Source: Escherichia coli (GTDB lineage Bacteria > Pseudomonadota > Gammaproteobacteria > Enterobacterales > Enterobacteriaceae). From it: a stretch of 64,000 nucleotides of DNA. Positions 4,114 to 61,994 of this stretch are shown here, in pieces; the stretch's first letter is position 1, and each line of letters starts with the position of its first letter. The translations under genes were made by a program, and so were the position numbers. The stretch is taken from the NCBI RefSeq assembly GCF_030013205.1, contig NZ_CP122648.1, one strand, 5' to 3'. The notes under the pieces were generated by a model, which saw only the letters and a list, made by a program, of their open reading frames with translations, did no database searches and had not been told where the DNA came from.

Positions 4114-4319
4114 AAAAAAAAGCACCGCAATTAGGCGGTGCTACATTAATCACTATGGACAGACAGGGTAAATGTACAGGAAGTGAAAAAAGGTAGCTTT
4201 GCTACCATGGTCTGAATCGCAGACCAATTGCAAACACAACAACACAACATCACAACCGTAAGCCAAAAGTTCACCAGAACACGCATTCCGATAAAACTTT
4301 TCGTTCCGGCTCAGGAAGT
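4114..4319 (-). ncRNA. gcvB: GcvB small regulatory RNA, divergent from gcvA
   Basis: Reverse complement reads ACTTCCTGAGCCGGAACGAAAAG...; contains the G/U-rich GTTGTGATGTTGTGTTGTTGTGTTTG region and ends in hairpin agcaccgcctaattgcggtgct plus U-run; matches recalled GcvB sequence. Confidence 0.85.
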
Positions 4320-22489: not shown

Positions 22490-22857
22490 GTCGACAGGGA
22501 GTCAGACAACGAAGTGAACATCAGGATGATGACACTTCTGAAGGACACACCAGGATGGTGTTTCAGGGAAAGGCTTCTGGATGAAGCGAAGAGGATGACG
22601 CAGGACGCGTTAAAGGACACCTCCAGGATGGAGAATGAGAACCGGTCAGGATGATTCGGTGGGTCAGGAAGGCCAGGGACACTTCAGGATGAAGTATCAC
22701 ATCGGGGTGGTGTGAGCAGGAAGCAATAGTTCAGGATGAACGATTGGCCGCAAGGCCAGAGGAAAAGTTGTCAAGGATGAGCAGGGAGCAACAAAAGTAG
22801 CTGGAATGCTGCGAAACGAACCGGGAGCACTGTGAATACAGTGCTCCCTTTTTTTAT
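22490..22857 (+). ncRNA. csrB: CsrB, CsrA-sequestering small RNA
   Basis: About 370 nt with numerous CAGGATG / AGGA repeats; ends with hairpin gggagcactgtgaatacagtgctccc plus T-run; 5' end approximate. Confidence 0.9.
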
Positions 22858-22900
22858 TCCTGCTATTCTTCGCGGCAGTTTTTCTTATTGAGGTTGCTTT

Positions 22901-57947: not shown

Positions 57948-58682
57948 ATGTCCAAACTCGATCTAAACGCCCTGAACGAACTGCCGAAGGTAGATCGCAT
58001 TCTGGCGCTGGCGGAAACTAACGCCGAACTGGAAAAACTGGACGCTGAAGGCCGCGTTGCCTGGGCGCTGGATAATCTGCCCGGTGAATATGTACTTTCT
58101 TCCAGCTTTGGCATTCAGGCGGCGGTGAGCCTGCATCTGGTGAATCAGATTCGCCCGGATATTCCAGTGATCCTCACCGATACGGGTTACTTGTTCCCGG
58201 AAACCTACCGCTTTATTGACGAGTTAACGGACAAACTCAAGCTCAACCTGAAAGTGTACCGCGCTACCGAAAGCGCCGCCTGGCAGGAAGCACGTTACGG
58301 AAAACTATGGGAGCAGGGCGTTGAAGGCATTGAAAAGTACAATGACATCAACAAAGTCGAACCGATGAACCGGGCGCTGAAAGAACTGAATGCGCAAACG
58401 TGGTTTGCTGGCCTGCGCCGCGAACAATCCGGCAGTCGCGCCAATTTACCGGTGCTGGCAATTCAGCGTGGCGTATTTAAAGTGCTGCCGATTATCGACT
58501 GGGATAACCGAACGATATATCAGTATCTGCAAAAACATGGCCTGAAATATCATCCATTATGGGACAAAGGATATTTATCCGTCGGTGATACCCATACAAC
58601 CCGTAAATGGGAACCCGGCATGGCGGAAGAAGAAACGCGTTTCTTTGGCTTAAAAAGGGAATGTGGGCTGCACGAAGGGTAA
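57948..58682 (+). CDS. cysH: phosphoadenosine phosphosulfate (PAPS) reductase
   Basis: Start set at [15 protein letters not shown] (ATG 57948); ORF-track start 57795 runs through the REP element. Confidence 0.9.
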
Positions 58683-58849
58683 AATATCGTACCGCTTAAT
58701 AAACGTCTCTGTCTGAAAAGATGGGGGCGTTTTTATTTTGCGAGCAGCATTCCTGATTTTAAACGTGAACGCCGCTGGAAGAATTATCAGGTATAGAATG
58801 GCGTTGGGTGCTTGAGGCTGTCTGGCGTTAAGCATTCGCGAGGTTCCAG

Positions 58850-58954
58850 ATGGACAAAAGCCCCAGGCGATATTTCTATCAACCTGAGGCCAGCGTTCGA
58901 ACCCAAACAACTCGAATGTTAGTCTCTTCTTTGCAGGGAGGCAAGACATGCTGA
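58850..58954 (+). CDS. mok-like 34-codon upstream reading frame coupled to the hok-like ORF (hypothetical)
   Basis: ATG 58850; stop TGA 58952-58954 lies just after the hok-like ATG (58948). Confidence 0.3.
58859..58909 (-). ncRNA. candidate Sok-like antisense RNA (hypothetical)
   Basis: On - strand: TTGCCT -35 (58939-58944), 17-bp spacer, TAACAT -10 (58916-58921), then a stem-loop (gccccagg / cctgaggc) followed by TTTTG; antisense to the mok-like frame. Confidence 0.25.
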
Positions 58955-59100
58955 CAAAATATGCCCTTGTGGCAATCATAGTGCTGTGTTTTACAGTACT
59001 GGGATTCACGCTGATGGTAGGCGACTCGTTGTGTGAGTTGAGTATCAGAGAACGTGGTATGGAGTTTAAGGCAGTTCTCGCTTACGAATCGAAGAAGTAG
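58948..59100 (+). CDS. Hok/Gef-family type I toxin, 50 aa (hokX-like position between cysH and cas3)
   Basis: [50 protein letters not shown]: hydrophobic N-terminus, SLCE(L/I) and AxxAYES motifs shared with Hok/Gef; AGGGAGG RBS 6 nt upstream; GC hairpin cgcgggg/ccccgcg just downstream; below the ORF-track size cut-off. Confidence 0.75.
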
Positions 59101-59294
59101 CCACCACGCGGGGGTAAAACCCCGCGTATTGAATTGTGATGGTTTGGTCTCCTGCACCCTTTTTTAATTTATATTGTTTATGTGAATATTATGCCTATGT
59201 TTATTATTCATATATATTACGGATGAAAATTATTTGATTATTCATAATGTAAATATTTTATTGAACGATATATGTCACAGATAATTTTTAATAT

Positions 59295-61994
59295 ATGCGT
59301 AAATATCCTTTAAGTTTACTGAAGGATAAAAATATTGTGACTTTTTTTGATTTCTGGGGAAAAACCCGACGCGGCGAGAAAGACGGGGGCGACGACTATC
59401 ACCTTCTTTGCTGGCATTCGCTGGATGTAGCCGCGATGGGCTATTTAATGGTTAAAAGCAATTGCTTCGGGCTGGTTGACTATTTTCGTCAACTAGGTTT
59501 CGCTGATACGGAGCAGGCAGCACAATTTTTCGCCTGGCTATTGTGCTGGCACGATACTGGAAAATTTGCCCGCTCTTTTCAGCAACTTTACCTGCACCCA
59601 CAACTCAAGGTTCCGGAAGGCGCAAGAAAGAATTACGAAAAGATCTCTCATTCAACGCTGGGCTACTGGCTGTGGCATCATTATTTAAGTGAATACGAAG
59701 AATTGCTTCCTTCATCTTCACTCTCTCCGCGCAAACTTAAACGGGTGATGGAGATGTGGATGCCCATGACTACCGGGCATCATGGTCGGCCCCCTGACCG
59801 TATTGATGAACTGGATAATTTTCTGCCTGAAGACAAAGCTGCCGCACGAGATTTTCTCCTTGAAATCAAGGTACTGTTTCCGCTCATCGAGATCCCCGCA
59901 TTCTGGGATGATGACGAGGGCATTGAACTTTTAAAACAACTTTCCTGGTATATCTCTGCAACCGTCGTACTCGCAGACTGGACGGGATCGTCAACGCGGT
60001 TTTTTCCACGCGTTGCACAGGCAATGGATATTAAAGATTACTGGCAGAAGGCTTTAGTTCAGGCTCAAAACGCCTTAACCGTCTTTCCTCCAAAAGCACA
60101 AACCGCGCCTTTCACCGGAATTAATACACTGTTTCCTTTTATTGAGCACCCGACACCGTTACAGCAAAAGGTGCTGGATCTGGATATCAGCCAGCCAGGA
60201 CCGCAGTTATTTATTCTGGAAGATGTGACTGGCGCAGGTAAAACAGAAGCGGCGCTTATCCTGGCGCACAGGTTGATGGCTGCGAGGAAAGCACAGGGTT
60301 TGTTTTTTGGCCTGCCAACAATGGCAACGGCCAATGCCATGTACGATCGGTTGGTCAAAACCTGGCTTGCTTTCTATTCTCCAGAATCTCGCCCCAGCCT
60401 GGTGCTGGCACACAGTGCCCGCACATTAATGGATCGCTTTAATGAATCACTCTGGTCCGGTGATTTAGTCGGGTCAGAAGAACCGGATGAACAAACGTTC
60501 AGTCAGGGATGTGCGGCCTGGTTTGCCGACAGTAACAAGAAGGCGTTGCTGGCTGAAATTGGCGTCGGCACTTTGGATCAGGCGATGATGGCGGTGATGC
60601 CGTTCAAACATAATAATCTGCGGCTTCTGGGGCTGAGTAATAAAATCCTGCTGGCTGATGAGATCCACGCCTGTGACGCTTACATGTCATGCATTCTTGA
60701 AGGGCTGATCGAGCGGCAGGCGCGTGGCGGAAACAGCGTCATTTTGCTTTCTGCCACGTTATCTCAACAGCAGCGCGACAAACTCGTTGCTGCCTTTGCG
60801 CGTGGTACAGAGGGCCAGCAAGAAGCTCCGTTCCTGGAAAAGGATGATTACCCCTGGCTGACGCACGTTACGAAATCCGATGTGCATTCACACCGGGTAG
60901 CGACGCGCAAAGACGTTGAGCGTAGCGTGAGCGTGGGTTGGCTTCATAGCGAACAAGAATGTATTGCGCGTATCGAATCGGCAGTAAGTCAGGGGAAATG
61001 CATCGCCTGGATCCGGAATTCTGTCGATGACGCTATTAAGGTTTATCGTCAGTTGCTTGCCCGCGGCGTCATTCCTGCTTCCAGCCTTTCTCTGTTTCAT
61101 AGCCGCTTTGCTTTTAGCGATCGCCAGCGAATTGAAACGGAAACGCTGGCACGCTTCGGTAAAAGTTGTAGTTTACAGAGATCATCGCAACTCATTGTTT
61201 TTACACAAGTAATTGAACAAAGTGTGGATATTGACCTGGACGAAATGATATCCGACCTGGCCCCTGTTGATTTGCTGATCCAACGGGCGGGGCGATTACA
61301 GCGGCATATCCGCGATATTAATGGTCAGTTAAAGCGTGACGGAAAAGACGAGCGTTCCCCTCCTGAATTGCTGATTCTGGCCCCCGTCTGGGACGACGCT
61401 CCAGGTGACGAATGGTTCGGCAGTGCCATGCGTAACAGTGCATATGTCTATCCCGATCATGGACGAATCTGGCTGACGCAGCGTGTACTGCGTGAGCAAG
61501 GCGCGATTCAAATGCCACACGCAGCCCGCCTTCTTATTGAATCAGTCTACGGTGAGGACGTGGTAATGCCGGAAGGATTTGCCCGCAGCGAGCAGGAACA
61601 AGTGGGCAAATATTACTGCGATCGCGCAATGGCTAAAAAGTTTGTGCTGAACTTCAGGCCCGGCTATGCCGCCAATATCAACGATTACCTCCCGGAAAAA
61701 CTGTCGACACGTCTGGCTGAGGAGTCTGTTTCCCTGTGGCTGTCTACCTGTATTGCCGGTGTGGTGAAGCCTTATGCCAACGGTGCTCACGCATGGGAAA
61801 TGAGCGTTGTCAGAGTGCGTCGAAGCTGGTGGAAAAAACATCGGGATGAGTTTTCTTTACTGGAAGGGGATGCGTTCAGGCAGTGGTGCATTGAACAGCG
61901 GCAAGAGCCGGAGATGGCAAACGTGATTTTAGTCACCGATGACGAAAGTTGCGGGTATTCGGCTATGGAAGGATTGACTGGCAAGGTTGGTTGA
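59295..61994 (+). CDS. cas3: Cas3 HD-nuclease/helicase, type I-E (variant differing from my recollection of K-12 Cas3)
   Basis: 899-aa ORF: N-terminal HD motif (LLCWHDTGKF), Walker A (TGAGKTEA), DEIH box (LLADEIHACDAY); very AT-rich region immediately upstream. Confidence 0.85.
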   Translation: MRKYPLSLLKDKNIVTFFDFWGKTRRGEKDGGDDYHLLCWHSLDVAAMGYLMVKSNCFGLVDYFRQLGFADTEQAAQFFAWLLCWHDTGKFARSFQQLYLHPQLKVPEGARKNYEKISHSTLGYWLWHHYLSEYEELLPSSSLSPRKLKRVMEMWMPMTTGHHGRPPDRIDELDNFLPEDKAAARDFLLEIKVLFPLIEIPAFWDDDEGIELLKQLSWYISATVVLADWTGSSTRFFPRVAQAMDIKDYWQKALVQAQNALTVFPPKAQTAPFTGINTLFPFIEHPTPLQQKVLDLDISQPGPQLFILEDVTGAGKTEAALILAHRLMAARKAQGLFFGLPTMATANAMYDRLVKTWLAFYSPESRPSLVLAHSARTLMDRFNESLWSGDLVGSEEPDEQTFSQGCAAWFADSNKKALLAEIGVGTLDQAMMAVMPFKHNNLRLLGLSNKILLADEIHACDAYMSCILEGLIERQARGGNSVILLSATLSQQQRDKLVAAFARGTEGQQEAPFLEKDDYPWLTHVTKSDVHSHRVATRKDVERSVSVGWLHSEQECIARIESAVSQGKCIAWIRNSVDDAIKVYRQLLARGVIPASSLSLFHSRFAFSDRQRIETETLARFGKSCSLQRSSQLIVFTQVIEQSVDIDLDEMISDLAPVDLLIQRAGRLQRHIRDINGQLKRDGKDERSPPELLILAPVWDDAPGDEWFGSAMRNSAYVYPDHGRIWLTQRVLREQGAIQMPHAARLLIESVYGEDVVMPEGFARSEQEQVGKYYCDRAMAKKFVLNFRPGYAANINDYLPEKLSTRLAEESVSLWLSTCIAGVVKPYANGAHAWEMSVVRVRRSWWKKHRDEFSLLEGDAFRQWCIEQRQEPEMANVILVTDDESCGYSAMEGLTGKVG

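Follow-up and report, generated by a model that had tools for sequence, protein, structure and literature searches.

With the hok copies of Escherichia coli K-12 inactive, it has long been a question whether chromosomal hok loci act at all. The region considered here is the intergenic one between cysH (ending at 58682) and cas3 (ATG at 59295) in a 64,000-nucleotide stretch of E. coli DNA, referred to below as the window. In this region, which has cysI and cysH on its upstream side and the cas3 gene of a type I-E CRISPR-Cas system on the other, an original prediction made from the letters alone had placed an unannotated type I toxin locus of the Hok family. Judged from its sequence, the region 58806-59165 is almost certainly the chromosomal hokX/sokX type I toxin-antitoxin locus of E. 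coli with all of its sequence elements whole, and with equal confidence we regard hokX as a sister paralogue of hokE. The locus as such is an ordinary one that is already described, and neither its existence nor its identity is new.

The hokX toxin gene

The toxin gene occupies positions 58948-59100 (+), starts with ATG, and encodes a peptide of 50 amino acids, which on identical DNA in RefSeq carries the accession WP_000956460.1. In this frame the original prediction had recognized a Hok/Gef signature, and a search with the family HMM confirmed it. The peptide matched the Pfam model HOK_GEF (PF01848) over the full profile (residues 5-46 on profile positions 1-42 of 42) with an i-Evalue of 3.5e-11 and 43.0 bits, and PF01848 was found in all 318 homologues listed. 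The peptide consists of an N-terminal hydrophobic stretch (residues 5-24) followed by DSLCEL and AVLAYESKK, and the hydrophobic helix, the SLCE cysteine, and the AYE motif that characterize Hok/Gef proteins are all present; the columns of DSLCEL and AVLAYESKK are conserved in related loci. The best NCBIfam models were those for HokA (NF007290) and the Hok subfamily (NF007279), both narrower than the Hok family and both scoring below the curated cut-off (57.7 vs. 89 bits and 41 vs. 73 bits, respectively). The encoded product is therefore a Hok protein, yet not HokA, and the name given by PGAP is still 'Hok/Gef family protein'.

The start codon is preceded, at a distance of 6 nt, by the Shine-Dalgarno sequence GGGAGG (58936-58941, +), in agreement with the strong ribosome-binding site that had been claimed for this frame. 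The element overlaps the proposed -35 hexamer of the sok promoter on the other strand. Its sequence, GGAGGCAA, is invariant in an alignment of 13 related loci, consisting of the window copy and 12 others: three other hokX alleles, two hokE copies, and seven loci from other genera, namely Klebsiella, Citrobacter rodentium, C. amalonaticus, Enterobacter kobei (two copies), Scandinavium, and Superficieibacter.

The leader, the mok-like frame, and the putative hok promoter

Upstream of and extending into the toxin frame, positions 58806-58963 (+) matched the Rfam family RF01794 over the whole model (1-157 of 157), with 107.5 bits (gathering score, 59) and an E-value of 5.8e-25. With the peptide assigned to Hok/Gef by Pfam and the leader to the hok/sok model by Rfam, the proposal of a Hok-family type I toxin locus is well founded. 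RF01794 is labelled 'sok antitoxin', yet the 157 nt that it matches are on the hok-sense strand, whereas the annotated K-12 sokX is 59 nt long and lies on the opposite strand. Because its match is hok-sense and 157 nt long, RF01794 in effect models the leader of the hok mRNA, not the Sok strand.

The leader contains a mok-like frame of 34 codons (58850-58954, +), with the Shine-Dalgarno sequence GAGG (58840-58843) 6 nt before its ATG. The TGA of this frame lies inside ATGCTGA (58948-58954), so that the frame ends at hok ATG+7, 4 nt past the hok ATG; a short overlapping frame with its stop just past the hok start had been expected here, and this 34-amino-acid frame is its counterpart. AAG, ACG, or ACA stands in place of the mok ATG in the HokE/HokX-like loci from Klebsiella, Citrobacter rodentium, C. 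amalonaticus, and Enterobacter kobei. The loss falls in alignment columns 57-66 (window 58846-58856), and the remainder of the leader is conserved. As the mok frame is also short in seven of 13 sampled hokX alleles (see below), either mok coupling may be inessential in the HokE/HokX-like clade, where it may not be universal, or many copies may be inactive.

A consensus scan of 58650-59350 for promoters and terminators returned only the terminator of cysH and a chance promoter-like site inside hok. The promoters of both hok and sok, as well as the Sok terminator, went unreported in this interval, and for this reason both promoters are described here as putative. For hok, the proposed -10 hexamer is TAGAAT (58794-58799, +), located 6 nt upstream of the GGGTGC with which the Rfam match begins. 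A hexamer of the form TAnnAT occurs at an equal distance in 13 of 13 related loci, and a good -35 hexamer was not found for this hok promoter. The cysH terminator itself (58701-58732) is an intrinsic one, with a stem of 14 pairs followed by a T run. An Rfam match to ctRNA_p42d at 58699-58741 coincides with the hairpin of this terminator, and was rejected as most likely due to chance (26.4 bits vs. a gathering score of 50).

The antisense RNA SokX

On the opposite strand, positions 58850-58908 (-) are identical in 59 of 59 nucleotides to the 59-nt 'small RNA SokX' annotated in K-12 MG1655 (b4701; NC_000913.3, 2887353-2887411), which in that genome is located between cas3 and cysH. In the predicted fold of this RNA (-23.8 kcal/mol, z -3.29), a small hairpin at the 5' end precedes a long one that leads into UUUUGU. 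As expected for a hok/sok locus, the antisense gene lies opposite the leader and the start of the mok-like frame, and it is predicted to be expressed. A candidate promoter was found at 58916-58944 (-), with the hexamers TTGCCT (58944-58939) and TAACAT (58921-58916) separated by a 17-nt spacer, and with about 7-8 nt from TAACAT to the annotated 5' end of sokX (58908). The consensus scan missed this promoter because only eight of the 12 consensus positions match. Given this weak match, the assignment is based on how the hexamers are placed with respect to the 5' end annotated for sokX, and on conservation, both hexamer positions being kept across the 13 related loci. Of the sok-like antisense unit that had been predicted, the RNA gene was thus located, at 58908-58850 (-) for sokX vs. 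approximately 58859-58909 in the prediction, while the accompanying promoter and terminator stayed under the thresholds of the scan and the promoter is put forward on the grounds given above. Two further sRNA genes are present in the window, those for CsrB (22499-22858, +; 382.9 bits) and GcvB (4114-4319, -; 199 bits).

Predicted fold of the hokX mRNA

The full-length hokX mRNA is predicted to cover 58806-59165 (+), about 360 nt, with its 5' end taken from the start of the RF01794 match and its 3' end from the T run at 59160-59165 past the fbi-like element. Folding of 58806-59169 gave a structure of -127.1 kcal/mol (z -3.35 vs. shuffled sequences) with the ends paired. In the MFE as well as in the centroid structure, a tac-like 5' element, GGGUGCUUGAGGCU (58806-58819, +), pairs with positions 59146-59159 of an fbi-like 3' element, GGUCUCCUGCACCC followed by TTTTTT (59146-59165, +), such that GGGUGC..GAGGCU at the 5' end is matched by GGUCUC..GCACCC at the 3' end. 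This tac-fbi arrangement is a defining trait of hok mRNAs.

The pairing between the ends is conserved. All 13 loci retain the six GGGUGC/GCACCC pairs in the RNAalifold consensus, which has compensatory changes at 23 of its 90 pairs; these include pairs from the post-stop hairpin, the Sok-target stem, and the hairpin at the 5' end. Beside the end helix, the column pair 9/372 varies on both sides: hokX has U/U, Klebsiella and Scandinavium have U-A, and hokE and Citrobacter have C-G. The post-stop hairpin starts 6 nt past the hok stop, at 59107-59126 (+), and has the composition CGCGGGGG-TAAA-ACCCCGCG. It is paired in both the fold and the consensus, with compensatory changes, and the GC hairpin that had been pointed out directly after the stop is accordingly present as CGCGGGGGTAAAACCCCGCG.

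Distribution in E. coli and relation to the cas genes

The window copy is situated just 3' of cysH, on the cas3/iap side, and contains the sokX sequence, an order that is the same as in RefSeq genomes and in published descriptions of hokX/sokX. Strain K_EC180 has DNA identical to 58690-59300, and its CDS bears the RefSeq name 'Hok/Gef family protein' (WP_000956460.1), a protein accession shared with BL21. The locus was hence unannotated in the ORF track that accompanied the original prediction, but not in RefSeq. The novelty implied by that prediction did not hold, as thousands of RefSeq genomes carry an annotation of the gene, and published work already uses the name hokX/sokX and covers how the locus relates to the cas-E variants.

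It has been published that hokX/sokX lies beside cysH and that only strains with the K-12 (E2) cas variant lack it (PMC3903273, PMC7232551, PMC12736100). In a toxin-antitoxin survey of AIEC, the copy in the cysH-iap region was described as a homologue of hokX of E. coli B, and a CRISPR study of urological E. coli reported hok and sokX adjoining cysH in 90% of the strains, with sokX alone, like K-12, in the rest. A hok sok system was likewise found in all strains but those with the E2 (K-12-type) cas-E variant (Almendros et al. 2014).

We identified the hokX ORF (at least 90% identity) in 4218 of 5426 complete E. coli genomes, in a single copy each and always on the chromosome, and the HokX peptide is 96-100% conserved over these 4218 genomes. 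A K-12-type junction, in which the hok ORF is deleted and sokX is left, was observed in 1173 of the 5426 genomes. Jointly, the two states were found in 5391 of 5426, and the counts reproduce the published relation between hokX and the cas-E variant. In K-12, the homology to the window breaks off exactly past the hok ATG, at window 58950, and a stretch of 91 unrelated bases separates this point from the K-12 cas3. The expectation that K-12 keeps a sokX remnant at this position was therefore correct: b4701 is identical to 58908-58850 (-), and homology stops after the hok ATG. Equally, an intact toxin frame adjoining the CRISPR-Cas operon had been claimed for the window, and the 50-amino-acid ORF is indeed whole, with the cas3 start at 59295. 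A rare third state was observed in NCCP 13918, where the match ends about 80 nt past cysH with casA directly after, both hok/sok and cas3 being deleted. The hokX locus was in addition found beside iap in strains without any cas genes.

No copy was detected on a plasmid-labelled replicon in a near-identity DNA search of the E. coli genome set. A plasmid origin was rejected, since near-identity copies are chromosomal only and the full-length matches in PLSDB are records of 4.8-5.4 Mb, evidently mislabelled chromosomes.

From the end of the hok mRNA to the start of cas3, the 125 bases at 59170-59294 have a G+C content of 18%, vs. 51% for the whole window, and presumably represent the cas3 promoter and silencing region. 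They are missing in K-12-type strains, which have a different spacer of 91 nt at this place.

Relatives of hokX

The hokX/sokX locus of K-12 MG1655 (sokX, b4701) occupies the same site as the window copy and has an identical sokX, to which the window adds the hok ORF and the 3' elements. The closest paralogue of hokX is hokE, with 40 of 50 residues identical (80%) and a DNA identity of about 80% over leader and ORF. The hokE/sokE locus shares with hokX the tac element, the sok promoter hexamers, the hok Shine-Dalgarno sequence, the GC hairpin, and the fbi element, and in K-12-like strains hokE carries IS186/IS421 in the equivalent hairpin, as hokX does in some strains. It differs by its chromosomal site, near entD/ybdK, and by its upstream frame, which, when read from the equivalent ATG, continues into hok in the same frame to give an 83-aa product, whereas the frame of hokX stops at the hok start.

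With the hok/sok (parB) system of plasmid R1, hokX/sokX has in common the Pfam family, the Rfam leader model, the pairing of the 5' and 3' ends, an antisense RNA that overlaps a leader frame, and an overlap of the antisense promoter, putative in hokX, with the Shine-Dalgarno region of hok. In R1, however, mok overlaps most of hok, whereas the mok-like frame of hokX ends at the hok start. The Hok toxins of plasmids share only 40-44% peptide identity with HokX, which is chromosomal. In other Enterobacteriaceae, homologues are located at unrelated chromosomal sites, for example at mutS or at sugar and transport genes. Tandem duplicates of hokE-like loci, each with its own leader, were observed in an E. 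coli STEC record (194-346 and 697-849) and in Enterobacter kobei (972-1175 and 1501-1653).

Damaged and whole hokX alleles

The states of hokX alleles were scored in a sample of 13, the window copy included, which is a small sample and not a census of the 4218 genomes. The mok-like frame is whole (34 codons) in six of these 13 alleles and has 18 codons in seven, where it is ended by a TAG or TAA about 40 nt ahead of the hok ATG. Alleles of the O55:H7/O157 type and several others have the frame cut in this way, while that of the window is whole. The O55:H7 allele in addition carries the substitution Cys29Tyr.

In three of the 13 alleles (BL21, EPSSH018, and CUVET20-1667), the GC hairpin contains an end of IS186/IS421, ATAAGCGCTAACTTAAGGGTTG, which is inserted at one point, after GGGGGTAAAACCC, and in both orientations; an equal insertion was observed in one hokE locus. 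The hokX of E. coli B/BL21 encodes the same protein as the window, but BL21 has the IS186-type insertion in its post-stop hairpin and the window is without it. The GC hairpin looks like a hot spot for IS186, and its form, with a G run and a C run, is that of what we take to be the IS186 target consensus. In BL21-RIPL, the IS186 end beside hokX is followed by tRNA-Lys, cpoB, pal, and tolB, not by cas or iap, which indicates a large rearrangement with its breakpoint at the IS186 insertion. The window copy has neither the mok truncation, the IS186 insertion, nor Cys29Tyr, and is one of three such copies among the 13 alleles.

Proposed mechanism

The mechanism proposed here is modelled on hok/sok of plasmid R1, from which we infer transcription, processing, coupling, and toxicity; what the sequence itself provides is the homology of the peptide, the leader, and sokX, the place of each element, and the conserved pairing of the 5' and 3' ends. 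A weak constitutive promoter would give rise to a stable mRNA of about 360 nt (58806 to approximately 59165), in which the pairing of tac with fbi would keep the message translationally inert and closed to the antisense RNA. Slow trimming of the 3' end would then free the 5' end and allow the leader to refold, whereupon translation of the mok-like frame (58850-58954) would deliver ribosomes to the overlapping hok start. The short, unstable SokX (58908-58850, -) is expected to pair with the mok start and thereby to block translation of mok, and hence of hok, with the duplex marked for RNase III. If SokX levels fell, the 50-aa Hok peptide would enter the inner membrane and cause the membrane potential to collapse. 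Chromosomal hok loci that were tested reportedly gave no post-segregational killing (Pedersen and Gerdes 1999), and such killing by the chromosomal hokX copy is not expected to matter.

Alternative explanations

It is conceivable, if on balance unlikely, that hokX is a decaying relic, whole in its elements yet silent or non-toxic in vivo and persisting as nearly neutral. Lesions of the locus are indeed common in E. coli: 1173 genomes have lost the hok ORF, and in the allele sample mok is cut in seven of 13, an IS186-type insertion is present in three of 13, and Cys29 is replaced by Tyr in O55:H7. The five hok loci of K-12 are moreover described as non-functional in an AIEC paper (citing Pedersen and Gerdes 1999). 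None of these lesions is found in the window copy, however, and the conservation of the peptide at 96-100% in 4218 genomes, together with RNA pairings that are kept with compensatory changes across genera, argues for ongoing selection on both the peptide and the RNA structure.

The same lesions have a reading in the opposite direction. The window allele belongs to a minority (three of 13) in which mok, the hairpin, fbi, and the cysteine are all whole, and repeated, independent damage elsewhere, counted here as mok stops, IS186 insertions at a single hot spot, and the deletion that accompanies the E2 cas swap, might mean that an active HokX is costly and for that reason inactivated time and again. 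Strains such as that of the window would then carry a truly active Hok module with a physiological role, for example in persistence or in abortive infection against phage; this is a speculative proposal to which we attach a low probability.

A link to the neighbouring CRISPR-Cas operon was also considered. CreTA are RNA toxin-antitoxin pairs that guard CRISPR-Cas, and hokX/sokX resembles them as a small toxin-antitoxin module adjoining cas genes. It lies directly upstream of the type I-E operon, with the end of the hok mRNA about 130 nt ahead of the cas3 ATG at 59295, and its occurrence among strains correlates with their cas-E variant, as might be expected of a guard or addiction element. The two are, however, unrelated in sequence and mechanism, hokX encoding a peptide toxin that would be repressed by its own antisense RNA and not by Cascade, and the SokX architecture shows no dependence on a Cas protein. 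Since hokX is present next to iap in strains that lack cas genes, K-12-type cas operons manage without hok, and relatives in other genera occupy unrelated sites, the guard role was rejected and is regarded by us as extremely improbable. That the toxin frame is a chance small intergenic ORF unrelated to Hok, for which its small size alone could speak, can be dismissed in view of the E-values of 3.5e-11 (Pfam) and 5.8e-25 (Rfam) and the occurrence of PF01848 in 318 homologues.

Significance

For the hokX/sokX locus of the window, the main value of the analysis lies in correct annotation, as an ORF cut-off of 60 amino acids conceals a genuine and conserved toxin gene. In E. coli, hokX/sokX furthermore offers a handy way to locate the edge of the exchangeable CRISPR-Cas I-E module. 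If the pattern of whole and damaged alleles holds in a full census, it could point to natural strains that are fit for testing the function of chromosomal hok.
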